A stretch of 64,000 bases of DNA from Polyangiales bacterium (GTDB lineage: Bacteria; Myxococcota_A; Polyangia; Polyangiales; Polyangiaceae). Position 1 is the first letter of the stretch. Each line of letters opens with the position of its first letter. The stretch lies in assembly GCA_038231275.1 (NCBI GenBank), contig JBBRLQ010000001.1, forward strand, positions 512,001 to 576,000. The letters run 5' to 3'. The notes under the pieces were generated by a model. It made no database searches and had not been told where the DNA came from. It saw only the letters and a program-made list of their open reading frames with translations. The position numbers and the translations under genes are program-made. Below, piece after piece: positions 13,110 through 27,589 of the stretch.

Positions 13110-14998
13110 TGCGGAGGCTCGATCACCTTGATTTTGAGCTCGACGAGCTGCTCGGGCGACGCCTTGCTCGGCGCGTCGGTCATCAGATCCGTGCCCTTCT
13201 GCGTCTTGGGGAACGGGATGACGTCACGCAGGCTGTCGGCGCCCGACAGGAGCATCGCCAGGCGATCCATGCCGATCGCGATCCCGCCGTGCGGCGGCGC
13301 GCCGAAGCGCAGCGCGTCGAGGAGGAAGCCGAATTTGGCGCGCGCGTCATCGTCGGAGATGCCGAGCGCGCGGAAGACCTTGGACTGCACCGCCGGATCG
13401 TGGAGGCGGATCGATCCACCGCCGATCTCGAAGCCGTTCAAGACGAGGTCGTAGCGGTAGCAGAGGACCTTGCCGGGATCCTTGTCGAGGAGATCGACGC
13501 ACTCGTCGTGCGGGCGCGTGAAGGCGTGGTGGGCGGCGGCCCAGGTCTTCTTGTCGTCGTCGTACTCGAAGAGCGGCGGGTTCACGACCCACAGGAAGTT
13601 CCATTTGCCGCCGTGGCCGACCTCGGGGATGAGGCCGAGCCGCTTGGCGAGGTGGACGCGCAGGTTCGCCATCACCGTCTGGACGGTGCTCTCCTTGCCG
13701 AACTGGAAGAGGAGCAAGTCGCCGCTCTCGGCCTTCGTCGCGGCATTGATCGCGTCGCGCAGCTCCGGCGTGATCGTCTTGGCGAGCGGTGACTGCGTCC
13801 ACTGCAGGGTGCCGTCCTTGCCGTCGATCTTCGCGCGCGCGAGCCCCTTGGCCCCCATGCCCTTGACGTACTCTTCGAGCTTGTCGATCTCCGTGCGCGA
13901 GAGCTTCGACGCGTGCTCGGCGGGGATGCGCAGCGCCTTGACGATCTCGGCGGGAAGATCCGCGCGGTACTGGCCGCTCTTGAATTTCTCGGCGATGGGC
14001 TGAAAGAAGGGGATGCCGCCGCCGCCCTGCGCGACGACGATCGCCGTGAGATCGGTGTGCGGCATGCCGAAGCGCAAGTCCGGCTTGTCGTTGCCGTAAT
14101 TTCCCATCGACTCTTCGAACGGCATCTGCGGGAAGCGGCCGCTCGGATAGAGCTCGTGGAGATCCACCCCGAGGACCTCCTTCCACACCTTGAAGATGAG
14201 GCCTTCCATGACGCGGAAGACGTCGTCCTGGTTCACGAACGACATCTCGACGTCGATCTGCGTGAACTCGGGCTGGCGATCGACGCGGAGATCCTCGTCG
14301 CGGAAGCATTTGACGATCTGGAAGTACCGATCGAAGCCGGCCACCATGTAGAGCTGCTTGAAGAGCTGCGGGCTCTCCGCGAGGGCGAAGAATTTGCCCG
14401 GGTTCATCCGGCTGGGGACGAGGAAGTTGCGGGCGCCGCCTGGCGTGTACTTCACCATCACGGGCGTCTCGAGCTCGAGGAAGCCGGCGTCGTCGAAGTA
14501 GCGCCGCGTCGTCTGGTGGATGCGGTGGCGAACGCGGAGGGTCTTCTGGAGCGGGGCGCGGCGAAGGTCGAGGTAGCGGTACTGGAGGCGCTTCTCTTCG
14601 CCGGTGTCGAGATCGTCGGTGATCTCGAAGGGCGGGGTGTCGGCGCGGTTGAAGACGTTGAGCTCGACCACGCGGATTTCGATCTCACCGGTCGGGAGGC
14701 GAGGGTTCTTGTTCCCGCCGCGCCCGACGACGATGCCGCGGACGCCGATGACCCACTCGCTGCGGAGCGCCTGCGCGGCGTCGTGCGCGGCCTTCGGCGC
14801 GTCGCCGTGGCCCTTCATGTCGGGATCGAAGACGAGCTGGGTGATGCCCTCGCGGTCCCGGAGATCGACGAAGACGCAGCCGCCGTGATCTCGGTAGCTC
14901 GCCACCCAGCCGAAGAGGACGACCTCTTTGCCCTCGTCGCTCGCGCGCAGGGCGGCGCAGTGGTGGGTGCGTTTCAGCTCGTCGATGAACCTGGCCAC
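13106..14998 (-). CDS. aspS: Aspartate--tRNA ligase
   Basis: RTHHC, RDHGG..FVDLRD, LQYRYLDLRR, CFRDEDLR.DRQPEFTQID, GGGSIR, PPHGGIA.G.DR; GTG start after GGAGG. The ORF-track extension to 15235 is spurious. Confidence 0.97.
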   Translation of the reverse strand: MARFIDELKRTHHCAALRASDEGKEVVLFGWVASYRDHGGCVFVDLRDREGITQLVFDPDMKGHGDAPKAAHDAAQALRSEWVIGVRGIVVGRGGNKNPRLPTGEIEIRVVELNVFNRADTPPFEITDDLDTGEEKRLQYRYLDLRRAPLQKTLRVRHRIHQTTRRYFDDAGFLELETPVMVKYTPGGARNFLVPSRMNPGKFFALAESPQLFKQLYMVAGFDRYFQIVKCFRDEDLRVDRQPEFTQIDVEMSFVNQDDVFRVMEGLIFKVWKEVLGVDLHELYPSGRFPQMPFEESMGNYGNDKPDLRFGMPHTDLTAIVVAQGGGGIPFFQPIAEKFKSGQYRADLPAEIVKALRIPAEHASKLSRTEIDKLEEYVKGMGAKGLARAKIDGKDGTLQWTQSPLAKTITPELRDAINAATKAESGDLLLFQFGKESTVQTVMANLRVHLAKRLGLIPEVGHGGKWNFLWVVNPPLFEYDDDKKTWAAAHHAFTRPHDECVDLLDKDPGKVLCYRYDLVLNGFEIGGGSIRLHDPAVQSKVFRALGISDDDARAKFGFLLDALRFGAPPHGGIAIGMDRLAMLLSGADSLRDVIPFPKTQKGTDLMTDAPSKASPEQLVELKIKVIEPPQ

Positions 14999-15091
14999 GA
15001 GACCTCCGCAAGGAACGTTGGGGGCACGGATGCTACCACCGCGCGGCTCCGAATTCTGTACCCCTCCGCCGCGGCGTCGTAAGACGGCCTT

Positions 15092-16918
15092 GTGGCATCT
15101 GCGCGCGCCGGAACGCCTCGCTCGTCCGAAGGCGGGCCGTCCGAGCGGGTCATCGGCGCGGCGCGCGCGGCGAGCGTGCTCCTTCCAGCGATCCTCGCGG
15201 CGGCGCACGTCGATCACGTCCCCGACGCGGCGCACGATCTCGGCGTCGCGCGGGTCGTCGGCCTCGGGTGGACCGGCGCGCTGCGCGGTCTCGACGTGCT
15301 CGCGGGGACGGCGTTCGCGTGGCTGCCGATTGGGACCCGCGCGTTTCGGGTGGGGCTCGCGTCGGCCGTGCTGTGCGGCGTCGGGGCCGGGCTCGTCTTC
15401 GAGCTCGGGTGGGCGCTCGTCTCGAGCGTGGCGCCGCGCGCGACGCGGTTGGGCCCCGCCGCGGCGGCGGTCGCTGCGCTCACCTGTGGCCTCTCGGTGG
15501 CGTGGCAGCTCGAGGCGGCGAGCGCGGGCACGCCGATCCTCGGCGCGATCCTCGTCCTCGGACCGCTCGTCGCGCTCGCGCGTGCGAAGAGCGTGCAGGA
15601 TGCACCGATCGCGACGATCGGGCTATTTTTAGGGCTCGCCGCGACCTACGAACCCCTGGTCGGGCTGGCGGCGTTTCTCTCCACGGCGGCCTTCGCGACG
15701 CTCGGCGGACGCGCGGAAGGGCTCGTCGCGAAGGAGCACGTTCGCAAGCTCGCGCCGCTCGCCTTCGCGGCAGCCGGCATCGCGCCCCTGGCGTTCGCGT
15801 TCTTGCGCGCACGCCATGACCCGCTCCTGGTCTTGCCGCGTCCGCCGCTCGCTTCCTTGCTCGGGGAGGCGGGCGCGTCGCCGCGGGGTTCGCCGATCGG
15901 GCTCGTGCACGCGGAGCTCGGGTTGGCGCTCGTGGTGCTGGCGGTCTTTGGACTGGTGCTCGCCGCGCGGTCGCCGAAGGGTCGACCGCTCGCGGCGGGG
16001 CTCTTCGCGATCGCGGCGGTGGGCTTCGCGGGTGCGGCCGTAGGTGCGCCCGCCGGGCCGACGCGCTGGGCGGGGCCGGTCCTCGCCGCGCTCGGCGCGC
16101 TCATGGCGCTGGCGGCCCTCGCGATGCAGGCGGTCGTTCGTGTCGTCGCGGATGCGCGCATCCCCTTCGCGCAGGCCAGCGCGGCGATGATCGTGGTCTT
16201 GCTCCTCGCGTTTCCGGCGCGCGTCGCCGACGACGCGTGGGGGCGCGCGGCCGATCGCGGGCGTGGCGGCGCGGTCGCGTGGGAGGAGGCGGCGTGGGGC
16301 GCTCTTCCGTTCGGAGCGGTCGTGCTTCTGGACGATCGGCGCGCGCTCGAGCGCATCGTCGCCGCGCGCGCCACCGGAGCGATGCGCGTCGATCTCGCGA
16401 TCGTGCCGTTCCGCGAGCTCTTGGGTCCGATGGCGTCGCTCGAGATCGCGCGCGAGCCGAAGCTCCAGGCGTTCCTCCGCGACATGGCGCTGGAGGGAGC
16501 GCCCGAGGAGCTGAGCCTCTCGTCGCTCGCCGCGGCGCGCCCGCTGGCGATGACGTTCGATCCGCGGTGGGACAAGCCGCTCTCGCGCCACCTCGTGCCG
16601 GCCGGGATGGTCGCGCGATTCGAGACGGAGCCGCGCGGCTCCAGCGATCGCAAGCGCGCGCTCGATCTCGGCGATGCCGCGCGCGCGCGCTTCGAGCGTC
16701 TCGTCACCCGCCCGCGGGATCTCGAGCTCTGCGCCGCGGCGGCCTCGCTCCTCCGTTCGCGCACCGTCGCGTTCGCGGCCGCAGGCGATCGCGAGGTCGT
16801 CGCGCGGGGCCTCGACGAGCTGAGGCCGTTTGCGCCGGACGACGCTGTGGCGAGCGAGCTGTCGCGTCGCGTCGTCAGCAGCAAGGGCGGCATCGAGGTG
16901 AAGGATCTTCACCCCTAG
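15092..16918 (+). CDS. Polytopic membrane protein (DUF2723/TMEM260-like, tentative)
   Basis: Many TM segments; LPIGTRAFRVGLASA resembles the DUF2723 motif; soluble C-terminal domain. Confidence 0.6.
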   Translation: MASARAGTPRSSEGGPSERVIGAARAASVLLPAILAAAHVDHVPDAAHDLGVARVVGLGWTGALRGLDVLAGTAFAWLPIGTRAFRVGLASAVLCGVGAGLVFELGWALVSSVAPRATRLGPAAAAVAALTCGLSVAWQLEAASAGTPILGAILVLGPLVALARAKSVQDAPIATIGLFLGLAATYEPLVGLAAFLSTAAFATLGGRAEGLVAKEHVRKLAPLAFAAAGIAPLAFAFLRARHDPLLVLPRPPLASLLGEAGASPRGSPIGLVHAELGLALVVLAVFGLVLAARSPKGRPLAAGLFAIAAVGFAGAAVGAPAGPTRWAGPVLAALGALMALAALAMQAVVRVVADARIPFAQASAAMIVVLLLAFPARVADDAWGRAADRGRGGAVAWEEAAWGALPFGAVVLLDDRRALERIVAARATGAMRVDLAIVPFRELLGPMASLEIAREPKLQAFLRDMALEGAPEELSLSSLAAARPLAMTFDPRWDKPLSRHLVPAGMVARFETEPRGSSDRKRALDLGDAARARFERLVTRPRDLELCAAAASLLRSRTVAFAAAGDREVVARGLDELRPFAPDDAVASELSRRVVSSKGGIEVKDLHP

Positions 16919-16953
16919 TTGCATGGCCGGCGTAAAAGAGTAATACATACTTT

Positions 16954-17772
16954 ATGTCACTTCAGGAGATCGCCGCCGAGACCGTCCGAATCGTCGACGC
17001 CGGCATGTATCGCGCGCCTTCGGGCCGTGACGTCCGGATCGACGCGCTCGTCGCCGCCGCCGAACGAGGCACCGCGCTGGTGCGACCGGGCGAGACGGAC
17101 GAGGTCGCGTTCGAGGCCCGCGCAGGAAAATGCGAGATCGAAGTGGTGCCGGAGACGACCGCGAAGGCCGCGCGCCGGCTCGTCCTGGCCGGGCATCCGC
17201 GCGTCGCGGCGCTGAACTTCGCGTCCGCCACGAACCCGGGCGGCGGCTTCCTCGGTGGCGCGATCGCCCAAGAGGAAGACCTGGCGCGTGCTTCGGCCCT
17301 CTACAAGTGCCTCCTCGCGCAGCCCGCGTACTACGCCGTGCACCGCAAGAGCCCGTCGCCGATCTACACCGACCACCTCGTCTACTCGCCCGACGTCCCG
17401 TTCTTCCGGGACCACGAGCTGACGTTGATCGAGGAGCCGTTCACCGTCTCGATCCTGACCGCCGCCGCGCCGAACGCAGGCGAGGCGCTCGCGGTCGACG
17501 TCAACGCCGCGCCCGCGATCGCAGCGGCGCTCGAGAAACGTGCGCGCGTGGTGCTCGACGTCGCGGCTGCGCGTGGGCACAGGGTCCTTGTCCTCGGCGC
17601 GTGGGGCTGCGGCGTGTTCCGGAACGATCCGGCGCAGGTCGCCAACATCTTCGCGCATTGGCTCGAGCACGCGCGGTTTCGCGGCGCCTTCGAGCGCGTC
17701 GTTTTCGCGATCTACGACCGCGCGCTCCGCCAGCCGAGCCTCACCGCGTTCCGCGATCGCTTTTCCGACTAG
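16954..17772 (+). CDS. TIGR02452-family bacterial PARG (macrodomain ADP-ribose glycohydrolase)
   Basis: LNFASATNPGGGFLGGAIAQEEDL (GGG-x-QEE), YSPDVPFFRD, LGAWGCGVFRNDP. Confidence 0.92.
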   Translation: MSLQEIAAETVRIVDAGMYRAPSGRDVRIDALVAAAERGTALVRPGETDEVAFEARAGKCEIEVVPETTAKAARRLVLAGHPRVAALNFASATNPGGGFLGGAIAQEEDLARASALYKCLLAQPAYYAVHRKSPSPIYTDHLVYSPDVPFFRDHELTLIEEPFTVSILTAAAPNAGEALAVDVNAAPAIAAALEKRARVVLDVAAARGHRVLVLGAWGCGVFRNDPAQVANIFAHWLEHARFRGAFERVVFAIYDRALRQPSLTAFRDRFSD

Positions 17773-17805
17773 CCGCACCGGGTGCACGGTGGGAACATCG
17801 CGCGC

Positions 17806-19188
17806 ATGATTGGTGCCATCGACGTGAAGCAGCTCCGCGCGCTCTTCCAGCAGCGCGGCATCAAGAAGGTCAAGGTGGGCGGCTTCGACATCGACGGTGT
17901 CCTCCGCGGAAAATACGCGAGCCTCGACAAGTTCTGGAGCATGGTGGAGAGCGGCTTCGGCTTCTGCGACGTCATCTTCGGGTGGGACATCGCCGACGTC
18001 CTCTACGACAACGCGAAGGTCACGGGCTGGGCCACCGGCTATCCCGACACGCACGCGCGCGTCGACCTCTCGACGTTCCGCGTCATCCCGCACGAGCCCG
18101 ACACAGCCGCGTTCCTCGTCGACTTCGTGACCGAGGACGGCGCGCCGCATCCGGCGTGCCCGCGCGGCCTCCTCAAGTCCATCCTCGCGAAGGCGAAGGG
18201 CATGGGCTACTCGGCGACGTTCGCGACCGAGTTCGAGTTCTTCGTCTTCAAGGAGACGCCCGAGTCGCTGCGCCAGAAGGGCTTCCGCAACATGACGCCG
18301 CTCTCGCCCGGCATGTTCGGCTACTCGTGGCTGCGCGAAGGGCAAAATAGCGATTTTTGCCGAGCGATCTGGGACGAATCGGAGGCGTTCGACATCCCGA
18401 TCGAGGCGCTCCACACCGAGACCGGGCCCGGCGTGTACGAGGTCGCGCTGCGGTACGACGAGGCGCTGCGCATGGCGGACAAGGCCGCGCTCTTCAAGAC
18501 GCACCTGAAGCAGCTGTGCACCCGGCGCGGCCTGCAAGCCACGTTCATGGCGAAGTGGAACGAGAGCCTGCCCGGCTCGAGCGGCCACCTCCATCAGTCG
18601 CTCTGGAGCGGGGACGGCGCGAAGAAGAAGAAGACGAACGTTTTTTACGACGCGAAGAGCCCGAAGGACTTGTCGGCCCTCGCGAAGAATTACCTCGGCG
18701 GCCAGCTCGCGCTCATGCCCGAGCTCACCGCGCTCTACGCGCCGACGATCAACAGCTACAAGCGCTACGTGCCCGGCGTGTGGGCGCCGCTCACCGCCTC
18801 GTGGGGGCTCGAGAACCGCACATGCGCGATCCGCGCGATCTTGGGCGGCGCGGCCGGCACACGTCTCGAGTACCGGCAGACGGCGGCGGACATCAACCCG
18901 TACATCGCGATCGCGACGTGCCTCGCCGCGGGACTCTGGGGCGTCGAGAAGAAGATCACGCCGTCGAAGGCCTCGAAGGGGGACGCGTCACGCGCGGACG
19001 ACGCCGCCGCCGCGCTGCCGCGCACGCTAAAAGAGGCGACCGAGCGCCTCGCCGCGAGCAAGGGCGCGCGAGCGATCCTGGGCGCTCCGTTCGTCGACCA
19101 CTTCGTCCGGACGCGCGAATGGGAAGTGCGGCAATACGAGCGCGTCGTCACCGAGTGGGAGCTCGCGCGATATTTCGAGTCGATCTGA
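17806..19188 (+). CDS. Glutamine synthetase-like gamma-glutamyl ligase (PuuA/GlnA4-like)
   Basis: DIDGVLRGK, EFEFF, HTETGPGVYE, TFMAK, GSSGHLHQSLW, NSYKR, WGLENRT. Confidence 0.9.
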   Translation: MIGAIDVKQLRALFQQRGIKKVKVGGFDIDGVLRGKYASLDKFWSMVESGFGFCDVIFGWDIADVLYDNAKVTGWATGYPDTHARVDLSTFRVIPHEPDTAAFLVDFVTEDGAPHPACPRGLLKSILAKAKGMGYSATFATEFEFFVFKETPESLRQKGFRNMTPLSPGMFGYSWLREGQNSDFCRAIWDESEAFDIPIEALHTETGPGVYEVALRYDEALRMADKAALFKTHLKQLCTRRGLQATFMAKWNESLPGSSGHLHQSLWSGDGAKKKKTNVFYDAKSPKDLSALAKNYLGGQLALMPELTALYAPTINSYKRYVPGVWAPLTASWGLENRTCAIRAILGGAAGTRLEYRQTAADINPYIAIATCLAAGLWGVEKKITPSKASKGDASRADDAAAALPRTLKEATERLAASKGARAILGAPFVDHFVRTREWEVRQYERVVTEWELARYFESI

Positions 19189-19256
19189 TCGTCGTTCTAT
19201 ACCCCGCCGGAATTGTTCGGCGTGCGCGGGCGTCCGGGGTTACCCTCGTGCCGCGC

Positions 19257-19751
19257 ATGAAGGAACCGTCCGCTCTGCACGAGGTCGGCGTCAGCGTCGA
19301 CTTCGGCGTCTTCAAGATGAACGCGAAGTGGGCGCCCGATCCGCGCCAGCGCGACGCCGCGTGGGCGATGTACGTCGAGCTCTCGACACGCATCGCGACG
19401 CAGGATCTGGATCTCGAGGTGGGCCTCCTCCGCGAGGCGCTCGACTCGCTCCACGCGCTCTTCGGTGTCACGCGCGAGATCCTCCGCAAGGAGGGCGCGC
19501 ACGTCGGCAAGGAGCCGAACACGGTCGGCGGAATGTCGATCCAAGTGCTCAATGCGGGGATCCGCCCGTTCCTGACGAAGTGGCACCCGCGCCTGGCGGA
19601 CTGGGAGACGCACAAAGATCCGCACACGAGCACGCTGTCGCACGAGCGCGCGTGGCAAGACGAAGCGAAATGCCGCGGCGAGCTGGCGAAGCTCCAGCGA
19701 GGCCTTTTGACCTATGCCGAAGCGCTCGGGAAAATCGCCGGCGCGGCCTGA
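19257..19751 (+). CDS. Alpha-helical hypothetical protein
   Basis: Real gene is the 3' part of ORF 18357..19751: AAWAMYVELSTRI, LREALDSLHALF, VLNAGIRPFLTKWHP. Confidence 0.75.
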   Translation: MKEPSALHEVGVSVDFGVFKMNAKWAPDPRQRDAAWAMYVELSTRIATQDLDLEVGLLREALDSLHALFGVTREILRKEGAHVGKEPNTVGGMSIQVLNAGIRPFLTKWHPRLADWETHKDPHTSTLSHERAWQDEAKCRGELAKLQRGLLTYAEALGKIAGAA

Positions 19752-19758
19752 GGCGGGG

Positions 19759-20418
19759 GTGACCTCGGTCTCGGTCTCGCGAAGCGCACGCGCGCGCGAC
19801 GACGGGCGGGGCGAAGGCGCGCCCGCCTACGACTACGAGGTCTTCGTCAGCTACCGGCGGCGCGATCCGGTGCTGTCGTGGATGAACAACCATTTTTTCC
19901 CAAAGCTCGTTCACTGGCTGCCGCAGTTCTGGCCGAGCGAGCTGCCCACGCCGCGCGTCGCGAAGGACGATCAGATGGAGACGGGCGTACGGTGGCCCGA
20001 TCGCCTCGCGCAGATGCACGCGGGCTCGCGGTGCATGGTCGCGATCCTGTCGCCCGAGTATTTTCGCTCGGAGTGGTGCACGAGCGAGTGGCGGGCGATG
20101 CAGGCGCGGGAGAAGGTCGTCGGGATGGCGACGAAGAGCCGGACGCGCGGCCTCATTTTCCCGGTCCTCTTCTGCGGAGACACGTCGGTGCTCCCCAAAG
20201 AGGCGGCGGCGCGGCAGTGGGCGGACTTCACGCGCCTCAATTTCCCGGACGAAGTGTTCCGCTTTCATCCCACGTACCTCGAGCTCGATCAGGCCGTGCA
20301 AGGCGTCGCGCGCGATCTCGTCTCGATGATCAAGAGCGCGCCGCCGCGCCGCGCGTGGCCTCGGCTCGAAGCCCCCAAGACGCTCGCGCGGCCGCCCATC
20401 GCGCTCCCGAGGCTTTGA
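19759..20418 (+). CDS. Stand-alone TIR-domain protein
   Basis: YEVFVSYRR, G.RWPD.L, ILSPEYFRSEWCTSEW (putative catalytic Glu), IFPVLF; start uncertain. Confidence 0.88.
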   Translation: MTSVSVSRSARARDDGRGEGAPAYDYEVFVSYRRRDPVLSWMNNHFFPKLVHWLPQFWPSELPTPRVAKDDQMETGVRWPDRLAQMHAGSRCMVAILSPEYFRSEWCTSEWRAMQAREKVVGMATKSRTRGLIFPVLFCGDTSVLPKEAAARQWADFTRLNFPDEVFRFHPTYLELDQAVQGVARDLVSMIKSAPPRRAWPRLEAPKTLARPPIALPRL

Positions 20419-20421
20419 GAG

Positions 20422-22143
20422 ATGGGCACGATCGTCACCTTCTACTCGTACAAAGGCGGCACCGGTCGCACGCTGGCTCTCGCCAACGTCGCCACGCTGC
20501 TCGCGCAGTGGGGGCACAAGGTCCTCTGCGTCGATTGGGATCTCGAGGCACCGGGGCTTCACCTCTACTTCGAGCGCCAAGCAGCGCCGGCGAAGGGCGG
20601 CCTCGTCGAGGTCATCGGGGCGCTCGCGAGCGGCCAGAAAAAATCGTCGTGGCAGCGCTACGTCGTTCGTACGGAGATCGGCGCGCGGGGCAAGCACGCG
20701 CGGGCGCGAAAGGGCAAAGGGCGGCTCGATCTCCTCGCGGCGGGAAAGCCCGGGCGCGGGTACGTCGCGCGGCTCCAAGCGCTCGACTGGAGCGCGCTCT
20801 ACGCCAAGGGGCTCGGCGAGGAGATCGAGCGCCTGCGTGAAGAGTGGTCGGCGGCGTACGACTTCGTGCTCCTCGACAGCCGCACCGGCATCACCGACAT
20901 CGGCGGCATCTGCACGGCGCAGCTTCCCGACATCCTCGTCCTGATGGCGACGGCGAACGATCAGAGCCTCGAAGGGATCGTCGACGTCGCCGATCGCGCG
21001 CGCGCCGCACGATCGCGGATGCCGCTCGACAAGCCCGTTTTGCACTGCGTCCCAGTGCCCTCGCGTTTCGACGTGCACATGGAGAGCGCGATCAGCGCCA
21101 AGTGGCTCCAAAAATTCGCGACGCGCCTCGAGCCGTATTATCGGACGTGGCTCCACACCGCGATCGCGCCGTCCGAGATCCTCGCGCACGTGAAAATTCC
21201 GTACACGCCGGTGTGGAGCTTCGGTGAGCGCTTGCCCGTCATCGACGAGGGCACCGCGGATCCGGAGTCGATCGGGTTCGCGCTCGAGACGCTCGCGGCG
21301 CTCGTCGCGCACAAATTGGCGTACTCCGACGTCCTCGTACGCAACCGGGACAGCTTCCTCGCGGCGGCGCGTGGCGCGCGCGCAGAAGAGGACGCGTCGC
21401 GCGGAGAGTTCGGCACGGACGTCTTCGTGAGCCACGGCGCCGCCGACGGCGAGCTCGCGTCGCGCCTCTCGCGCGCGCTGAAAAAGCGCGGTCTCGCTGT
21501 GACTCGGCACGAGCGCGGCGGCGAGACTGCGCTGGCGCGCGAGCAATCGCTGCGCGGCGCGAAGAACCTGCTCACGATCGTGGGTCCCGAGTTCGGCGGG
21601 TGGCAGCTCGAGGAGACGATGAGCTTCCTCAAGATGGCCAACGCGCCGAGCCAGCGCGTCGTCGTGCTCCTCACGCGCGACGCCCGTCCGGCCGACGTGC
21701 CGCCGCTCCTTCGCGACGCGCCCGTGCTGGACGATCGACGACCCGAAGGCGCGCTCGTCGATCGCCTGGCGTCGGTGATGGGGTCGCTCGCGCGCGCCGA
21801 CGATCCGCAACACGGATTGTGGGGGCGCCGCGCCGAGCGCGCAGGCCGCGAGCTGACCGCCAAGGTGCGCCCCGTGAAGGGCGAGCGCGATCTCTACCGG
21901 ATCGATCTCACCGTCACGCGCGCGAAGGGGGCGTCGCCGATTCGCGGTCCGGTGCGCTTCCACCTGCATCCGTCGTTCAAGCGCCACGTTCGCGAGGTCG
22001 AGCCGGCCGGCGGCGTCGCGTCCCTGTCGGTCCTCGGCGCGAGCGCGTTCACCGTCGGCGCCGAGCTCGACGACGGCGCGACCATCCTCGAGCTCGATCT
22101 CGCGCGCGTGCCCGGCGTTCCCAAGGGGTTCGTCGACGTCTGA
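20422..22143 (+). CDS. Variant ParA/MinD ATPase fused to TIR and a C-terminal pYEATS-like domain
   Basis: TFYSYKGGTGRT, VDWDLEAPGL, LDSRTG; second TIR (DVFVSH...WQLEE); C-terminus DDPQHGLWG...VRFHLHPSF...AFTVGAELDDG..LELDL. Confidence 0.85.
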   Translation: MGTIVTFYSYKGGTGRTLALANVATLLAQWGHKVLCVDWDLEAPGLHLYFERQAAPAKGGLVEVIGALASGQKKSSWQRYVVRTEIGARGKHARARKGKGRLDLLAAGKPGRGYVARLQALDWSALYAKGLGEEIERLREEWSAAYDFVLLDSRTGITDIGGICTAQLPDILVLMATANDQSLEGIVDVADRARAARSRMPLDKPVLHCVPVPSRFDVHMESAISAKWLQKFATRLEPYYRTWLHTAIAPSEILAHVKIPYTPVWSFGERLPVIDEGTADPESIGFALETLAALVAHKLAYSDVLVRNRDSFLAAARGARAEEDASRGEFGTDVFVSHGAADGELASRLSRALKKRGLAVTRHERGGETALAREQSLRGAKNLLTIVGPEFGGWQLEETMSFLKMANAPSQRVVVLLTRDARPADVPPLLRDAPVLDDRRPEGALVDRLASVMGSLARADDPQHGLWGRRAERAGRELTAKVRPVKGERDLYRIDLTVTRAKGASPIRGPVRFHLHPSFKRHVREVEPAGGVASLSVLGASAFTVGAELDDGATILELDLARVPGVPKGFVDV

Positions 22144-22179
22144 ACCGCCCGCCCGCGAGCGTGCTACCGTCGAGCAGTC

Positions 22180-23025
22180 ATGAGGCTCGCCGCCATCGCC
22201 CTCGCGCTGTCGCTTCCGCTCTTAGCCGCATCGTCTGCGCGCGCCGCCGGTCCGCCGCCACCTGAGGGCGCCGTGCACATGAAGGACGGCGGCCTCATCC
22301 GCGGCGGCCTCCTCGAGGTGAAGCCCGACGATCACGTCACGGTGCTCCTCGCGACCGGGCAGACCGCGACGATCCCTTGGCATCTCGTCGATCGCATCGA
22401 AGGAATCGCCAGCACCGCGCCGCCGTCGGCCCTGGTCGTCGTCCCTCCGCCGCCGCGACGCACCGCCCTCGTGCACATCGAGTCCGATCGACCGGTCCGC
22501 CTCGAGGCCGCGACCGGCAAGAAGAGCTTCGACTTCGTCTGCCAATCGCCGTGCGACAAGGAGGTCGATCTCGACCGGCGCTACCGAATCGGCGGCGACG
22601 GCGTGCGCAACACGAGCCCGTTCTCGATCGAGGCGCAGCCGCACCAGCGCGTCGTCATCGACGTCGACACGTCGTCGAAGGGCTCGTTCGTCGGCGGCAT
22701 CGTGCTCGTGAGCATCTCGCCGGTCGTGGCGCTCATCGGCCTCGTCGTCTACGCGGTCAGCTCGATCACGCTCGACGGCTCGGGCGGGAGCGACAGTGGT
22801 CGGACCGTCGGCGTCGTCATGGGGGTCGGCGGCCTCGTCGGCATCGTCCTCGGCACGGTCATGATCATCTCCAGCTCGAGCTCGAAGCAGTCGCAATCGA
22901 TCGCCGGTCCTCCTCCTCCCGGCACGCCGCCCGCGCGCGACGCCGCACGCGAGCCGATCTGGCACACCGGCGTCGTCGCCCCGCCCGCCGCGACGACGTT
23001 CGAGGTCCCGGTCCTCCGCTTCTGA
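22180..23025 (+). CDS. Exported/membrane hypothetical protein
   Basis: Signal peptide, CQSPC motif, two C-terminal TM helices. Confidence 0.75.
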   Translation: MRLAAIALALSLPLLAASSARAAGPPPPEGAVHMKDGGLIRGGLLEVKPDDHVTVLLATGQTATIPWHLVDRIEGIASTAPPSALVVVPPPPRRTALVHIESDRPVRLEAATGKKSFDFVCQSPCDKEVDLDRRYRIGGDGVRNTSPFSIEAQPHQRVVIDVDTSSKGSFVGGIVLVSISPVVALIGLVVYAVSSITLDGSGGSDSGRTVGVVMGVGGLVGIVLGTVMIISSSSSKQSQSIAGPPPPGTPPARDAAREPIWHTGVVAPPAATTFEVPVLRF

Positions 23026-23045
23026 TTCGGATTTCGGAAGGCGCC

Positions 23046-24074
23046 CTAGCGCGTCGCCGGACGCCGGTCGCGGTTCTGCCAACCAAGCATCCAGCCCGGA
23101 TACTCCGGCGGGAGCGCGCTTGCCTCGTCCAGCTTGGCGATGTGCTCGGGCGCGAGCTCCGTGTCCGCCGCGGTGAGGTTGTCCTTCAGCTGCTCCATCG
23201 TCTTGGCGCCGATGATGACGCTCGTCACGAAGGGCTTCGTGAGCTGCCACGCGAGCGCGACGCGCGCAACCGAGAGGCCCGTCGCCTCGCCGACCGCACG
23301 CAGCGCCTTCAGCACCGTCGGCAAGCGACCGCGGTCGACCGGCGGAAAATCAAACGACGTGCGCCGCGCCCCCTCGGGGTTCGGCTTGTCGGGATCGAAC
23401 TTTCCGGAGAGCAGCCCACCCGCGAGCGGGCTCCACGGCAGGATCGCCAGCCCCTGATCCTGCGCAAACGGCACGATTTCTCGCTCGATGTCGCGTCCCG
23501 CGATCGAGTAGTAGACCTGCGCGCTCACGAACTTCGTGAGGCCGTTGGCGTGTGCGAACGCGTTCGCCTTCATCGCCTGCCACGCCGACAGGTTGCAGAA
23601 GCCGATGTACCGCACCTTCCCGCTCCGGACGACGTCGTCGAGCGCGCGCATCGTCTCTTCGAAGGGTGTGTCGATGTCGAAGCCGTGAATTTGGTAGAGG
23701 TCCACGTAGTCGAGCTCGAGGCGCGAGAGGCTCGCGTCGATCGAGGAGAGAATGTGTCCGCGCGATAGGCCGACCTGGTTTGGGCCAGGACCGGTGCGTC
23801 CGCGGCACTTCGTCGCGAGGAAGATCTGATCGCGCGGCCGGCCCAGCTTGGCGAGTGCCGCGCCGACGAGCTTCTCCGACTCTCCCTCGGAGTACACGTC
23901 GGCGGTGTCGATGAAGTTCACCCCCGCGTCGAGCGACGCGCCGACGAGCGCCTCCGCGTCCGCCGCACCGAGCTTGCCGACGACCTCCCAAAAGCCCTTC
24001 CCGCCGAACGTCATGCTGCCGAAGCAGAGCTCCGACACGTACACCCCCGTTTTTCCGAGCAGTCGGTAGCGCAT
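23046..24074 (-). CDS. Aldo/keto reductase
   Basis: MRYRLLGKTG.YVSELCFG, NFIDTADVYS.G.SE, DYVDLYQIH, WSPLAGGLLSGK. Confidence 0.93.
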   Translation of the reverse strand: MRYRLLGKTGVYVSELCFGSMTFGGKGFWEVVGKLGAADAEALVGASLDAGVNFIDTADVYSEGESEKLVGAALAKLGRPRDQIFLATKCRGRTGPGPNQVGLSRGHILSSIDASLSRLELDYVDLYQIHGFDIDTPFEETMRALDDVVRSGKVRYIGFCNLSAWQAMKANAFAHANGLTKFVSAQVYYSIAGRDIEREIVPFAQDQGLAILPWSPLAGGLLSGKFDPDKPNPEGARRTSFDFPPVDRGRLPTVLKALRAVGEATGLSVARVALAWQLTKPFVTSVIIGAKTMEQLKDNLTAADTELAPEHIAKLDEASALPPEYPGWMLGWQNRDRRPATR

Positions 24075-24258
24075 GGTGAACCTCCGGTGGGGTAGTGATG
24101 CCGGGCGCTCGCTCTTGGTTGCGCGCGGTTTCGCGAAGGGCCCTCGCGCCTCGATTCTGCGGTGCCCACACATCCAGAGGCGATAGGATCGTGAGGATGT
24201 GGCACGATCGTCCACACTCGGGCGGACAATGGCCGCCGGACTCCCATCGCGCGCAGCC

Positions 24259-25422
24259 ATGAGTCGCTCACATCGCCTGTTCACGCCGCGAGCCGCGACG
24301 CTGGCCGCCCTCCTCGGTGCGGCGAGCGCGGGGTGCAGCGCGCTCCTGGCGATCGCCGACGTGGGATACGGGGCGCCCGACGCGGGCGGCGATGCGGGGC
24401 TGGACGAAGAGCTCGCCGCCCGCGAGGGGGGAGAGGACGCGGCGTTCTGCAAGGACGCGGACGTCGTGGCAGACCCCCTCAACTGCGGCGCCTGCCGACA
24501 CGATTGCCTCGGTGGTGCCTGCACCGGGGGCCTTTGCCAGCCGTACCTGATCGCCGTCGCAAACCACCCGCGCGGCATCGGCGTGGACGGCGCGGAGATT
24601 TACTTCGCCACGGACCGAGAGGTGCTGCACCACTCGACGCGCGCAGGCTCCGAGGTGCCCAAGAGCCTCGCGGCGAACCAGAGCGAGCCGGAGGGCCTCG
24701 CGATCACGTTGCGCGGTATCTATTGGACGACCAACGAGTACTTCATTGCGACGGGCGGAAGTCTTTCGTTCGCGACGCGGCAGGGGCAGAGCTCGGTGCT
24801 CGTTTCTCCGGCTCCGGCGAGCTTTTTTGTCGAGGCGAGAGGCGGCGCGGTTTTCTGGAACCTCCGCGCGCAAGGTGACGGGGGCGACAGCATCATGTGG
24901 ATCCATGAGGACGGCGGTACGGAGGCAGGTGCCCTCCGCGGATTGGGCAGCACGTTCGGTCTCGCCATGGACGACGAGCGCACCTACTGGACGGAGCCTT
25001 CCAAAGGCATCATCCACTATTGCGACCGACCAGCGTGCGCGATGGCGCGTACCCTCCTAAGCAGCGAGCCCGGGGCGCGGGCGATCACGGTTCGCGGCTC
25101 CCGCTTGTATTGGGTCCGGGGCTTCACATTGAAGAGCTGCACGCTGCCCGCCTGCGCCGACGAGACCACCCTCGCCTCCCAAGGCTTTGGGACGACCACG
25201 CCCGAGCCCGGAAAGATCGCCGTCGACGACGACTACGTTTACGGAAGCGGCACGGACGGAGCGACCTTGGTCCGATGTTCCGTCGCGGGGTGCGGCGGCA
25301 ATCCGGAGGTCGTCGCGACCGCGAACCAGCCATTCGACATCGCTTTGGACGATGCAGGTGTCTACTGGTCGAGCTTCGCGGCGCCCGATGCGGGTGGCGG
25401 CATCTTCGGTAAGGCGAAATAG
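24259..25422 (+). CDS. Lipoprotein with a Cys-rich module and beta-propeller-like repeats
   Basis: Lipobox ASAGC; DPLNCGACRHDCLGGACTGGLCQP; repeated IAVD..YW strands. Confidence 0.75.
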   Translation: MSRSHRLFTPRAATLAALLGAASAGCSALLAIADVGYGAPDAGGDAGLDEELAAREGGEDAAFCKDADVVADPLNCGACRHDCLGGACTGGLCQPYLIAVANHPRGIGVDGAEIYFATDREVLHHSTRAGSEVPKSLAANQSEPEGLAITLRGIYWTTNEYFIATGGSLSFATRQGQSSVLVSPAPASFFVEARGGAVFWNLRAQGDGGDSIMWIHEDGGTEAGALRGLGSTFGLAMDDERTYWTEPSKGIIHYCDRPACAMARTLLSSEPGARAITVRGSRLYWVRGFTLKSCTLPACADETTLASQGFGTTTPEPGKIAVDDDYVYGSGTDGATLVRCSVAGCGGNPEVVATANQPFDIALDDAGVYWSSFAAPDAGGGIFGKAK

Positions 25423-25515
25423 GCGGCGCTGCCGATGAAGCCGCGGCGCCGTCACCTGACCCCGGGGCAGCAGGCCCGCTAGAGCGGCGCCTGGCTTCGT
25501 GGTAGCTCCTCCTTC

Positions 25516-26649
25516 ATGTCAATGTCGACCTGGAGCTTCCCCACCAAGATCGTCTTCGGCAACGGCGCGCTCAAGACCCTCGCGGATCACGTGAAGGCAA
25601 TCGGCGCGACGCGCGCGCTCGTCGTGTGCGATCCGGGGGTCGTGAAGGTCGGCATCGCCGAGAAGGTGAAGGCCGTCCTCGAGGGCGGCGGCGTCCCCGC
25701 GGCGATCTTCGACGGCGTCGATCCGAACCCGGTCGAGAAGAACGTTGTCGACGGCGTCGCGGCCTACAAGGCGCATGGCGCGAACGTCATCGTCTCGGTG
25801 GGCGGCGGCTCGCCGCTCGACGCCGGCAAGCTCATCGCGCTCAAGACGACGCACGAGCGGCCGCTCGTCGACTACGACGACGCGACCGGCGGCGACCAGT
25901 ACATCGGCGCCAACGTCCCGCCGATGATCACGATCCCGACGACCGCCGGCACCGGCAGCGAGGTCGGTCGCTCCGGCGTCGTGACGCTCGCGGCGAACGG
26001 GCGAAAGACCGTGATCTTCTCGCCGCACCTCCTAGCGAAGGTTGCGCTCCTCGACCCCGAGCTCACGGTCTCCATGCCCGCGCGCATCACCGCCGCCACC
26101 GGCTTCGACGCGCTCACCCACTGCCTCGAAGCGTTCTGCTCGGTCGGCGATCACCCGATGGCCGACGGCATCGCGCTCTTCGGCCTCGAGCTCTGCGCCA
26201 AGCACCTCGCGACCGCGGTCGCGAACGGCAAGGACCTCGAGGCGCGCGGCGCGATGATGAAGGCCGCGATGATGGGCGCCGTCGCGTTCCAAAAGGGCCT
26301 CGGCGCGTGCCACTCGCTCGCGCACCCGCTCTCGAGCGAGAAGGGCATGCACCACGGCCTGGCCAACGCGCTCTGCCTGCCGGCAGTTGTAGAATACAAC
26401 GAAGCGGTCATCCACGAGAAGCTCGAGCGCGTCCGCGCGATCATCGATCCCGGCGCCAAGACCGCCGCCGACGCCGTCCGAGGACTCCGCAAGAAGCTCG
26501 GTCTCCCCGAGGGTCTCCGAGCGGAGGGCGTCACCGAGGCCGACATCCCCAAGCTCGCCGACAAGGCCATCCAGGACGCGTGTCACACCAGCAATCCCAA
26601 GAAGACGACGCGCGACGATCTCGCGAAGCTCTACGCCACGTCGATGTGA
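25516..26649 (+). CDS. Iron-containing alcohol dehydrogenase
   Basis: GGGSPLD, PTTAGTGSEV, DALTHCLE, HSLAH, HHGLAN. Confidence 0.93.
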   Translation: MSMSTWSFPTKIVFGNGALKTLADHVKAIGATRALVVCDPGVVKVGIAEKVKAVLEGGGVPAAIFDGVDPNPVEKNVVDGVAAYKAHGANVIVSVGGGSPLDAGKLIALKTTHERPLVDYDDATGGDQYIGANVPPMITIPTTAGTGSEVGRSGVVTLAANGRKTVIFSPHLLAKVALLDPELTVSMPARITAATGFDALTHCLEAFCSVGDHPMADGIALFGLELCAKHLATAVANGKDLEARGAMMKAAMMGAVAFQKGLGACHSLAHPLSSEKGMHHGLANALCLPAVVEYNEAVIHEKLERVRAIIDPGAKTAADAVRGLRKKLGLPEGLRAEGVTEADIPKLADKAIQDACHTSNPKKTTRDDLAKLYATSM

Positions 26650-26665
26650 GGGTACGCTCGGCGGC

Positions 26666-27589
26666 GTGAGCGCGCCGGGGCCGGTCTACGTCAAGCGAAC
26701 GTCCTGCCGCGCCTGCGGTGGCCCGAAGGTGACGCGCCCAAAGACCGGGTACGTCTACTGCGACTACTGCGCGACGCTCATCGACTGGGACTTCCAGGTC
26801 GCGATCTCGACGAAGGGATCAGCGCTTCCCGGACCGCAGTACGAGATCCTCGCCGCGCAGCTGAAGCCGGAGCTGGACGCCGCGCTCGCCGCCCTCGATC
26901 GACCGCGATATTACCGTGCACAATACACACTCTACGCGCTGTACGTTCAGCTGTGCCCCGCGTCGCTCTCGCCGCGCGTGGGCGATCCCGCATACCGCGC
27001 GGCGTTCGTCGACTACACCGCGAAGACGACGACCGAGCAGGATTTCGATCCGGCCACCGCGGCGACGACGGCCGCGATGGACGACGCCGTGAAGAAGCTC
27101 CAGTGGATCAACGCGGGCGGCGCGATGCAGTGCGCCCCGGCGACGTTCTGGCCGATGTGGGACGCCGTCGTGGCGAAGATCCAGGCGAGCATCGACATCA
27201 ACGGGCGAACCGGCCTCCTCGCGCAGCACCCTGACGGCGCGCCGGCGGACCTTCTCCTTCGCATGGGTCTGTCGGCGATGGTGCAGGGTTGGCTGCCTTA
27301 CCTCGGCGCCGCCGACAGCGAGCGGCTCCTCGCGGTGAGCGGCATGAAGGGCGAGTACGTCGCGGTGCAGCCGCCGCCCACGACCGAGTCGCCGTGCTCG
27401 GGATGCGGCGGCGCGCTCCACATCGTGCAAGGAGCGAAGCGCGTCGTGTGCGAGTCGTGTGGGCGCGTGAACGATCTGGGCGCCGGCTCGATCGCGTGCC
27501 CGACCTGTGGCGGCCACGTGCCGATCGGCGAGGGCAACCTCGCGTCGTGCCCGTTCTGCCGCGCAGATCTCAGGGCGATGCGGCCGTGA
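26666..27589 (+). CDS. Multi-zinc-ribbon hypothetical protein
   Basis: Six CxxC motifs (two N-terminal, four C-terminal) flanking a helical core. Confidence 0.75.
   Translation: MSAPGPVYVKRTSCRACGGPKVTRPKTGYVYCDYCATLIDWDFQVAISTKGSALPGPQYEILAAQLKPELDAALAALDRPRYYRAQYTLYALYVQLCPASLSPRVGDPAYRAAFVDYTAKTTTEQDFDPATAATTAAMDDAVKKLQWINAGGAMQCAPATFWPMWDAVVAKIQASIDINGRTGLLAQHPDGAPADLLLRMGLSAMVQGWLPYLGAADSERLLAVSGMKGEYVAVQPPPTTESPCSGCGGALHIVQGAKRVVCESCGRVNDLGAGSIACPTCGGHVPIGEGNLASCPFCRADLRAMRP

Follow-up and report, generated by a model that had tools for sequence, protein, structure and literature searches.

A three-gene TIR-ParA locus with a C-terminal pYEATS domain and an unnamed TIR-associated first gene in a Polyangiales bacterium

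Three tightly packed genes on the forward strand of a Polyangiales contig, at 19257-22143 of the window (the whole stretch of 64,000 nucleotides that was analysed), raise the question of what kind of system they encode and what the first of them contributes to it. The list of open reading frames and their translations confirmed the co-directional arrangement described in the earlier note. The first gene, g1 (19257..19751), encodes a protein of 164 aa with an N-terminal β-hairpin plus a helical bundle and belongs to an unnamed TIR-associated family; gene 2 (19714..20418) encodes a stand-alone TIR protein of the TIR-FC type, a predicted NAD+-cleaving effector; and gene 3 (20422-22143) encodes a fusion of 573 aa composed of a ParA-type ATPase, a second TIR and a pYEATS domain. 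The gap of 3 nt reported between genes 2 and 3 is exact, but the gap of 7 nt reported for genes 1 and 2 requires gene 2 to begin at the alternative start, GTG 19759; its longest reading frame begins at ATG 19714 and shares 38 nt with g1. A GAGG lies just 5' of both candidate starts, and relatives have a comparable N-terminus and a comparable overlap. The three-gene layout is not a chance run of reading frames; other records from Myxococcota contain it as well, with proteins that are 46-88% identical. A scan of 18900-22500 for promoters and terminators gave nothing usable. In the eight flanking reading frames searched with Pfam (13106-27589), the neighbours are housekeeping genes (Asp-tRNA synthetase, a glutamine-synthetase-like gene and alcohol dehydrogenase), and the locus is therefore not a defence island.

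Alignment shows that the TIR of gene 2 keeps an active-site motif of the NADase type. Residues 43-175 match Pfam TIR_2 with 54.3 bits (cut-off 28, E 2.4e-14), the S.WC..E motif quoted in the earlier note is present, and S113, Y116, F117, S119, C122 and E125 are invariant in an alignment of 17 sequences (17/17). Glu125 (codon 20086..20088) stands at the catalytic-Glu position of TIR NADases: the stretch around it aligns with the TIR of RUN1 (phmmer), in which the aligned Glu is the catalytic one, and the Glu-to-Ala entry of RUN1, 7s2z, aligns at the same place. In a TIR-domain tree, a quick tree only, with SH-aLRT support and a midpoint root, gene 2 is placed within a clade of ParA-adjacent TIRs. 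Its C-terminal tail (20326..20415) runs from a Trp-Pro motif through a Pro-rich spacer to a Pro-Arg-hydrophobic end; P210, W215 and P232 are invariant in the 17-sequence alignment, and P216 and R233 are nearly so. A Pro-Arg/Lys pair followed by at most two residues also forms the C-terminus of 36 of 78 TIR proteins encoded ahead of a KGGVGR-type ParA. From these sequence patterns we infer that the tail is a candidate docking peptide for ParA, and its conservation suggests how the effector may be tethered to the switch.

The N-terminal part of gene 3 (20422..21381) is a ParA/MinD-type ATPase of the ConB2, or KGGVGR, kind, matching the NCBIfam model for KGGVGR-motif variant AAA ATPases (AAA_KGGVGR; residues 4-192, 164.7 bits against 90, E 2.9e-48). 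Its Walker A motif (20452-20472) is the KGGTGRT reported before, at residues 11-17, in which Arg16 replaces the P-loop Lys. The residues K11, G12, G13, G15, R16, D38-W39-D40, P44-G45 and D147...D152 are invariant in 18 sequences; judged from this alignment, the ParA nucleotide-binding motifs are intact and carry the Lys-to-Arg change typical of the clade. In PADLOC, the ATPase matches the candidate defence component PDC-M28B (3.6e-26), and none of the three operon proteins matches a PDC-M28A model, these models being used here without a curated cut-off. The second TIR, of the TIR-FT type (21421..21732), is likewise a TIR_2 match (residues 334-437, 39.7 bits against 28, E 8.1e-10) and contains the quoted WQLEE motif with Trp394 and Glu398. 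In an hhalign comparison of the TIR-FC and gene 3 alignments (probability 36%, E 3.9e-4), E125 of gene 2 pairs with E398 of gene 3 and Trp394 with the Trp of the upstream TIR; the Ser/Tyr/Ser residues ahead of Trp394/Glu398 are lost in the second TIR. Seven of the 18 aligned relatives keep Trp-x3-Glu, and 10 have Asp in the Glu column and lack the Trp.

The C-terminal pYEATS domain (21895..22101) is the predicted sensor. The YEATS-like character claimed for this region is borne out by Pfam PF20305 (39.4 bits against 26.9) and by two independent structure searches in which YEATS domains ranked first, in keeping with a YEATS-type β-sandwich; the YEATS rows listed in the structure search are 13-20% identical to the gene 3 domain. 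At the sequence level, only a single short strand-loop stretch around His-Leu-His-x-Ser resembles eukaryotic YEATS; it aligns weakly with Sas5 (E 1.3). Eukaryotic YEATS domains (AF9, ENL, Taf14, GAS41) are readers of acyl-lysine, which is held in an aromatic cage. The Ig-like fold is common to them and to the C-terminus of gene 3, whereas the pYEATS domain sits in a bacterial ATPase-TIR fusion; pYEATS reportedly goes back to Burroughs and Aravind (2020, J Bacteriol). Thus, all the domain calls of the earlier note (TIR_2 twice, pYEATS and the KGGVGR ATPase) stand above their Pfam or NCBIfam cut-offs.

The earlier note had not recognised this combination as a named system, a statement now overtaken by a bioRxiv preprint of Li, Burroughs and Aravind (22 Oct 2026; 10.64898/2026.10.19.760177), which is computational only and defines "TIR-ParA apoptosis systems". 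According to its sections on these systems, the class has an active upstream TIR with an NAD+-degrading site and, in a subset, an inactive C-terminal TIR fused to ParA (TIR-FT); ConB2 ATPases are marked by Arg for the Walker A Lys and by a PG motif after sensor-1, and pYEATS is listed among the sensors of the "ligand-binding subtype" (10.64898/2026.10.19.760177). In the locus described here, a TIR gene with the invariant, putatively catalytic Glu125 directly precedes the ParA gene, R16 and D38-W-D40...P44-G45 of the ATPase are invariant, and the fusion carries a second TIR and ends in pYEATS. The logic is also the same as far as the preprint sets it out, and the working model of the earlier note, in which a sensor acts through an ATPase switch on a TIR NADase, is essentially the one published for the class (10.64898/2026.10.19.760177). 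The further proposal that two TIRs are assembled for NAD+ depletion fits the class only in part: the preprint gives it one active upstream TIR and calls the fused TIR inactive, whereas the fused TIR here keeps Trp-x3-Glu (10.64898/2026.10.19.760177). The locus differs in two other respects, since the main text of the preprint describes a gene dyad whereas a conserved third gene, g1, lies upstream here, and the conserved tail of the upstream TIR is absent from the preprint's text sections on these systems. A literature search found no experimental study of any TIR-ParA system, including any NADase or anti-phage phenotype; defence, NADase activity and the sensor role are therefore all predictions, as are the other functional statements made on the operon below.

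Two better-known systems share parts of this architecture. The link drawn earlier to the FxSxx-COOH system (FxsC/FxsT; NF040588, NF047398) holds: the TIR of gene 2 finds its best match in NCBIfam FxsC_Nterm (E 6.1e-15), the ATPase is a KGGVGR-motif variant AAA ATPase scoring above its cut-off, and the TIR clade of the window adjoins TIRs of Pseudonocardiaceae in the quick tree. On the other hand, the FxsC_Nterm score of 55.6 bits falls far below the cut-off of 130, and that system is actinobacterial, whereas the host here belongs to Myxococcota. Among the eight flanking reading frames searched with Pfam (13106-27589), there was no FxsC-C domain, no STAND/TPR module and no gene for an FxsA peptide, an FxsB radical-SAM protein or peptide maturation. 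Thoeris (a ThsB TIR plus ThsA) resembles the locus in having a bacterial TIR with a Glu at the catalytic position in a small operon of the defence type; it differs in that no ThsA-like SIR2, Macro or SLOG effector is present in the operon, and control here would pass through a ParA switch. Neither gene 2 nor gene 3 has a ThsB_TIR match in Pfam, and the NCBIfam model for type III Thoeris scores 14.5 bits against 220.

In 76 of 80 loci with a KGGVGR-type ParA, drawn from Actinomycetota, Acidobacteriota, Chloroflexota, Planctomycetota, Bacteroidota and others, a TIR gene ends within 1 kb upstream on the same strand, so that the order TIR-then-ParA is kept across many phyla. The three-gene form was found in the window, in three further loci (L001, L002 and L165) and in a genome of the same genus (G416); the co-occurrence in other genomes that the earlier proposal called for is thus present, and the order persists at 46-49% ParA protein identity. 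All close relatives are labelled Myxococcales or Polyangiales. The operon is single-copy in its own genome. Of 401 genomes sampled across the phylum, 6 yielded g1, as did 0 of 29 from the host's taxonomic family. The position 3' of the glutamine-synthetase-like gene is shared within the genus only, and in 8 other genomes of the family the system was not seen within about 1.5 kb on either side of that gene. A metagenome scan with P0011 returned at least 24 loci; among the matches listed, all were of other ParA types and there was no pYEATS-type locus.

By contrast with the TIR-ParA pair, g1, to which the earlier note assigned no role, belongs to a separate, widespread and unnamed TIR-associated family that is new here. 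The protein has no family in Pfam, NCBIfam or PADLOC. Its AlphaFold2 model (pLDDT 90, pTM 0.83) shows the β-hairpin and helical bundle, and Foldseek found no match at E<=1e-3 in the PDB, nor was there one at that threshold in a viral structure library. A search gave 63 homologues, and at E<=1e-3 the family extends to 2016 cluster representatives, the clusters being defined at 50% identity; its members stand beside TIR genes in hundreds of genomes. In 40 of 79 g1 loci a TIR gene starts within 150 nt downstream and in 16 more at 151-1000 nt, which brings 56 of 79 within 1 kb; of the 47 loci for which the downstream reading frame was scanned, Pfam confirmed TIR_2 in 43. This TIR is fused to GUN4 in 30 of the 43, and to FGE-sulfatase, SLOG and other domains elsewhere. 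The family is concentrated in filamentous cyanobacteria, where it mostly lies upstream of TIR-GUN4. These cyanobacterial pairs resemble the present locus in that a member of the same g1 family stands directly upstream of a TIR and the TIR is linked to a putative sensor; unlike here, the sensor is fused to the TIR itself, ParA is absent and the TIR is of another clade. In 20 of the 79 g1 loci there is no same-strand TIR downstream, and the neighbours are housekeeping genes or transposases, with a WD40-Ras-TIR protein just upstream in one of them. Among 25 long family members scanned, there were three g1-TIR and TIR-g1 fusions, four HTH fusions, and one fusion each with SLOG, metallophosphoesterase and BTAD.

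Two identities were considered for g1 but led no further. HEPN domains have four helices and an Rx4-6H motif where the last helix begins; R103 and H110 of g1 have the Arg-x6-His spacing but occupy a mid-helix position in helix 3 of the model, and the fold matches listed include no HEPN chain. A protein-atlas lead to DUF6650 (score 0.84) was not confirmed, with 0 of 23 family members matching it in Pfam at E<=1.

Is g1, then, a part of the system at all? It occurs in only 1 of the 80 KGGVGR-type ParA loci and is lacking in the close system relative L164; because of its absence there and from the 79 other TIR-ParA loci, it is dispensable for the core mechanism. It is not a general part of TIR-ParA systems and joined this one secondarily. 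The same absences would suit a mere neighbour with no functional tie to the TIR-ParA pair, but the strong cross-phylum association of the family with TIR genes, the direct fusions, and the retention of the three-gene order at the ParA divergence given above make this reading very improbable. A more serious alternative is that g1 is an antitoxin-like inhibitor of the free TIR in a ternary toxin/antitoxin/ParA-sensor system, in which ParA removes the inhibitor upon sensing. The protein is small and its gene immediately precedes the TIR gene, with a probable overlap of 35-38 nt, a typical type II layout, and HTH(XRE)-g1 fusions exist (P0185; 4 of the 25 long forms). Furthermore, section 24 of the preprint describes TA-ParA ternary systems that follow this logic (10.64898/2026.10.19.760177). 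In these, a lethal effector and a small partner encoded upstream accompany a sensor-fused ParA, a three-gene composition like the one predicted here. The TIR effector is, however, not among the six toxin types listed in that section, and g1 has neither a known antitoxin fold nor a DNA-binding domain of its own. Antitoxins co-evolve with their toxins; many polar residues of g1 (an Arg, Glu, Trp set) are instead invariant across forms that are 33-51% identical and have differing fusion partners, which is unusual for antitoxins. In the quick tree g1 accompanies at least two separate TIR clades, and single-chain TIR-g1 fusions are more readily reconciled with a regulatory domain than with a labile antitoxin. 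We regard the antitoxin reading as possible but doubtful.

It is less probable still that the free TIR is a Thoeris-like producer of a signal rather than a bulk depleter of NAD+, with g1 or pYEATS as the receptor of a nucleotide derived from NAD. In Thoeris, the TIR does produce a nucleotide signal; fusion partners in the g1 family (SLOG, phosphoesterase, HTH and TIR) are typical of nucleotide-signal circuits, and the invariant Arg/Glu/Trp residues of g1 could line a pocket for a nucleotide. The operon, however, contains no recognisable downstream killing effector and no ThsA-like gene, g1 has no enzyme or membrane domain and is missing from most TIR-ParA systems, and the Thoeris models score far below their cut-offs. 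The purpose of the operon might also lie in the multicellular life of a myxobacterium, in cell death during development or in the discrimination of kin, and not in phage or plasmid defence. The labels of its close relatives, the filamentous cyanobacteria in which the g1 family is concentrated, and the enrichment of TIR-ParA systems in multicellular bacteria stated in the preprint (10.64898/2026.10.19.760177) are in keeping with this. Against it stand the PADLOC match of the ATPase to a candidate defence component and the patchiness within the family (0 of 29 genomes with g1, and no copy beside the glutamine-synthetase-like gene in 8 others), a pattern of accessory defence and not of a core developmental gene, so that this purpose appears quite unlikely.

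Based on the results presented above, the locus is probably a single-copy accessory operon of Myxococcota that belongs to the predicted abortive-infection ('apoptosis') class of TIR-ParA systems, in the ligand-binding subtype with a pYEATS sensor; a TIR NADase would be switched by ParA, with g1 as an add-on regulator. In the proposed sequence of events, pYEATS would bind a ligand that appears or changes on infection, and ligand binding would drive the ParA domain into a nucleotide-bound dimer or oligomer. The TIR fused to ParA would then be joined in a TIR-TIR assembly by the free TIR, which would dock by means of its conserved C-terminal tail, and this assembly would turn on NAD+ cleavage and lead to cell death or dormancy. 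We take g1 to regulate the TIR, most likely as a brake that binds either a small molecule or the TIR itself and would set the threshold for firing. A bolder and only tentative extension is that the whole family of about 2,000 clusters consists of undescribed TIR-partner domains, in which the Arg/Glu/Trp set would bind NAD+ or a nucleotide produced by the TIR and would gate TIR activity; this layer would be common to the cyanobacterial TIR-GUN4 pairs and the myxobacterial TIR-ParA operon and reused with HTH, SLOG and phosphoesterase modules.

The operon offers a convenient test case for a class that has so far been purely computational, as it is compact, comprises three genes and is present in a single copy in a large myxobacterial genome. 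An effector residue (Glu125), a switch motif (Lys11/Arg16) and a removable sensor provide the handles. If g1 controls TIR NADases, it would represent a new regulator for a domain with a central role in the immunity of bacteria, plants and animals.

The ORF list and translations place three co-directional genes on the + strand: g1 (19257-19751, 164 aa), encoding a helical protein; gene 2 (19714 to 20418, 234 aa from the ATG at 19714), encoding a stand-alone TIR protein; and gene 3 (20422-22143, 573 aa), encoding a ParA-TIR-pYEATS fusion. The 3-nt spacing between genes 2 and 3 given in the earlier note is exact, and its 7-nt gap between g1 and gene 2 holds if the GTG at 19759 starts gene 2; with the longest ORF, from ATG 19714, gene 2 instead overlaps g1 by 38 nt. 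GAGG precedes both candidates, and in relatives the N-terminus is similarly basic and the overlap is 35 nt, so that either codon may be the start; the TIR domain is the same either way. By Pfam, gene 2 matches TIR_2 (2.4e-14, 54.3 bits against a cut-off of 28), and gene 3 combines a ParA/MinD-type N-terminus, TIR_2 at residues 334-437 (8.1e-10) and pYEATS (PF20305) at residues 492-560 (5.5e-10, 39.4 bits against a cut-off of 26.9). NCBIfam assigns the N-terminus of gene 3 to the KGGVGR-motif variant AAA ATPases (2.9e-48, 164.7 bits against a cut-off of 90), and the top NCBIfam match of gene 2 is FxsC_Nterm, at 55.6 bits far under the cut-off of 130. The gene 3 ATPase also resembles the PADLOC candidate defence component PDC-M28B (3.6e-26); PADLOC gave no convincing match for g1 or gene 2, and g1 has no family in Pfam, NCBIfam or PADLOC.

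A whole-word literature search for pYEATS returned one paper, a preprint dated 22 Oct 2026 (Li, Burroughs and Aravind, bioRxiv 10.64898/2026.10.19.760177). In the available passages of this computational work, the defining feature of TIR-ParA apoptosis systems is that a conventional TIR whose active site degrades NAD+ is encoded upstream of, and coupled to, the ParA gene; a subset has a further C-terminal TIR on ParA whose active site has seemingly been lost, and a "ligand-binding subtype" carries a C-terminal pYEATS, FGS or CATASP domain. The ParA of the class belongs to the ConB2 assemblage, recognised by an Arg where Walker A otherwise has its Lys and by a PG motif that follows sensor-1. 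The proposed mechanism runs from sensor to ParA to the active TIR, which destroys NAD+, with the inactive TIRs aiding multimerisation. Since these passages define both the class and its pYEATS subtype, the combination that the earlier note took to be unnamed is a described one. Both ConB2 marks are common to the class and the window: K11, G12, G13, G15 and R16, D38-W-D40 and P44-G45 of gene 3 are invariant in 18 relatives. However, the fused TIR, described for a subset of the class as apparently lacking its active site, keeps Trp-x3-Glu in the window. Further literature searches found no experimental study of TIR-ParA systems, and the class is already known as a prediction only.

When residues 455-573 of gene 3 were folded together with five relatives (alignment A4), the model was a beta-sandwich with a pLDDT of 90.7. 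Nearly all top rows of a Foldseek search against the PDB are YEATS domains, with Taf14 (3qrl) first (E 1.8e-3, TM 0.48), followed by Yaf9, Sas5, YEATS2, AF9 and ENL; no match reached E 1e-3. A profile search of PDB sequences gave a weak local match to Sas5 at a His-Leu-His-x-Ser stretch (E 1.3). The Foldseek ranking and the Sas5 match imply that the C-terminus, as modelled, has the YEATS-like fold that the earlier note had assigned to it. A pYEATS domain with 40% identity to that of the window also occurs in a membrane-anchored setting without ParA or TIR, at the C-terminus of a 350-aa protein with N-terminal membrane helices and a coiled-coil region (locus L003, 2250-3302, + strand, Flavobacterium MAG).

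In phmmer searches, gene 2 aligns with plant TIR NADases, its Ser..Trp-Cys..Glu stretch being matched to that of RUN1, and a RUN1 entry with Ala at the Glu column aligns at the identical place. We take the RUN1 Glu in the column of gene 2 E125 to be the catalytic Glu. Residues S113, Y116, F117, S119, C122 and E125 are invariant among 17 relatives of gene 2. In a profile-profile alignment, gene 2 residues 38-125 fall opposite gene 3 residues 329-398 at a probability of 36% (E 3.9e-4), and this same 36% pairing equates E125 with E398 and W121 with W394. The Trp and Glu of the fused TIR are kept in 7 of 18 gene 3 rows, namely the window and relatives at 70-88% identity; 10 rows have Asp in this column and lack the Trp, and one is wholly different at the motif. 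Precomputed domain lists give TIR_2 for the seven Trp/Glu-keeping rows and two others, and for none of the 18 rows P0011-P0028. Given that Trp, Glu and TIR_2 are kept in the window's lineage, the fused TIR appears better preserved there than in its cousins, and it may be active.

The gene 3 alignment was also used to scan species-representative genomes (595 relatives, 80 loci kept), with TIR and ParA called by HMMs built in this analysis. In 76 of these 80 loci a TIR domain ends at most 1 kb upstream of a ParA that lies on the same strand; two others lack a ParA match to the built model, one lacks a TIR, and one lies at a contig start. Across phyla, TIR proteins preceding KGGVGR-type ParA (loci L005-L084) share a C-terminal tail in which a Trp-Pro motif is followed by a Pro-rich spacer and then by a Pro-Arg-hydrophobic end. 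In 36 of 78 upstream TIR proteins, no more than two residues follow a terminal Pro-Arg/Lys, and the window's clade conserves the tail. ParA/MinD ATPases have short partner peptides, and by analogy the tail is a candidate docking peptide for ParA; the preprint passages searched (bioRxiv 10.64898/2026.10.19.760177) do not mention it.

The remaining component, g1, belongs to a large family. A word-indexed search found 63 homologues, and querying 1.84 billion cluster representatives with a profile yielded 2016 matches at E<=1e-3, of which 1225 pass 1e-10 and 298 pass 1e-30. Its AlphaFold2 model (pLDDT 90, pTM 0.83) has a beta-hairpin followed by helices 29-44, 58-79, 90-117, 126-131 and 136-161, for which fold searches returned generic bundles only. 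Stand-alone and fused forms (33-51% identity) share invariant W36, E41, R45, R59, E60, S64, R73, R103, W109, E117, E130, W133 and R140. Pfam scans of 25 long members of the family gave three TIR fusions (in either order), four proteins with an XRE-type HTH, and one each with SLOG, a metallophosphoesterase or BTAD/TPR; two have sub-threshold matches only, and 13 have no family. Some members (e.g. P0204, P0205 and P0208) instead consist of two to four g1 domains in tandem, 380-660 aa long, with no other Pfam domain.

Genome scanning with the g1 alignment gave 551 relatives, and the 79 loci kept come chiefly from filamentous cyanobacteria. On the same strand, a TIR starts at most 150 nt downstream of g1 in 40 of the 79 loci, 151-1000 nt downstream in 16 and farther away in two; 20 have no TIR on that strand, and one meets a contig end. 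The TIR model used here was built from those same loci, and Pfam served as an independent check: the downstream ORF was submitted for 47 loci, and 43 of them have TIR_2. Thirty of these 43 are TIR-GUN4 proteins, and the others combine TIR with FGE-sulfatase, SLOG, methyltransferase or EAD8; in the four TIR-less loci the gene found is VWA in one, Uma2 in two and that of an orange-carotenoid protein in one. The TIR module is sometimes duplicated, as two tandem TIR-GUN4 genes (L098, 5508-7822), a TIR-TIR-GUN4 protein (L124, 5490-6860) or a pair of small TIR genes in succession (L202). A cyanobacterial plasmid carries one g1-TIR pair (L142, Calothrix sp. NIES-4101 plasmid4), a DDE transposase follows the TIR gene in L113, and orphan g1 genes in L102 and L154 adjoin IS605-type TnpB and IS200 transposase genes; the plasmid copy and these neighbours hint that such pairs can move and decay.

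Only one of the 80 ParA loci contains a g1 homologue (L073, Chlorobiaceae). The three genes that the earlier note treated as a unit do co-occur beyond the window, in relatives' loci L001, L002 and L165 and in the same-genus genome G416. The ParA proteins of L001 and L002 are 86% and 79% identical to the window's; that of L165 shares 85% identity with P0017, which in turn is 46% identical to the window's. In L164, closely related to L165, the TIR and ParA-TIR-pYEATS genes occur without g1. Cluster tables lend indirect support to the association: longest-contig values 407570, 17245 and 8833 are common to the g1, TIR and ParA clusters, and pairs share several more. A quick tree built from 155 TIR domains (IQ-TREE, SH-aLRT support, midpoint root) groups 49 cyanobacterial TIRs adjacent to g1 in one clade (support 99), and the window TIR forms another with L001, L002, L164 and L165 (support 100), which under this rooting is nested among ParA-adjacent TIRs, adjoining Pseudonocardiaceae sequences. 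The TIRs of L164 and L165 match FxsC_Nterm in NCBIfam, and the sole NCBIfam match of five cyanobacterial g1-adjacent TIRs is a weak one to a retron TIR model. As tree and NCBIfam agree, these sequence comparisons indicate that g1 has partners in at least two TIR clades and probably joined a TIR-ParA pair secondarily in the window's lineage.

The genome of the window, 9.28 Mb in 164 contigs, contains a single g1 copy and a single ATPase above the KGGVGR cut-off. Six of 401 sampled genomes of the phylum, its own included, carry g1, and none of the 29 same-family genomes in that sample does. Of 30 family genomes, 19 have an orthologue of the glutamine-synthetase-like gene that lies upstream; among nine relatives' loci (~1.5 kb either side), the system follows this gene only in the same-genus genome. 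This patchy presence, together with housekeeping flanks that differ in L164 and L165, gives the locus the pattern of a small mobile accessory unit rather than a defence island. Two genes upstream of the operon lies a microbial-type poly(ADP-ribose) glycohydrolase gene (16954-17772, + strand; PARG_cat_microb, 1.5e-48), a curious neighbour for a predicted NAD+-cleaving TIR; it is absent from the corresponding position of the operon-bearing same-genus genome, so conservation does not link the two. In the two distant relatives L164 (3754-4329, - strand) and L165 (3545-4291, - strand), a gene for a repetitive protein rich in Cys lies directly upstream of the system, on the opposite strand, and none was noticed at the matching place in the window. 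The flanking ORFs 15092-16918, 22180-23025, 24199-25422 and 26666-27589 (all + strand) have no Pfam family at E<=1e-3; that at 22180-23025 begins like a signal peptide, is hydrophobic in its C-terminal region and is not conserved beside the system in L164 or L165.

Domains, motifs, and gene order with its conservation are direct observations on this operon. The locus is probably a conflict system of the TIR-ParA type, with TIR-mediated cleavage of NAD+ as its output. In such a system, pYEATS would sense a ligand, ParA would switch in a nucleotide-dependent manner, and the TIRs would assemble, whereupon NAD+ would be lost and the cell would die. The position of g1, its fusions and its conserved polar set favour a predicted role as a TIR regulator, either a ligand-binding brake or a direct inhibitor. 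That g1 is antitoxin-like seems rather unlikely, and a role as signal receptor is more doubtful still.

The ternary form with g1, the g1 family, the upstream-TIR tail and the Trp-x3-Glu of the fused TIR were not found in the literature searched or in the passages of the preprint covered here, and its figures and supplements may already show some of them.
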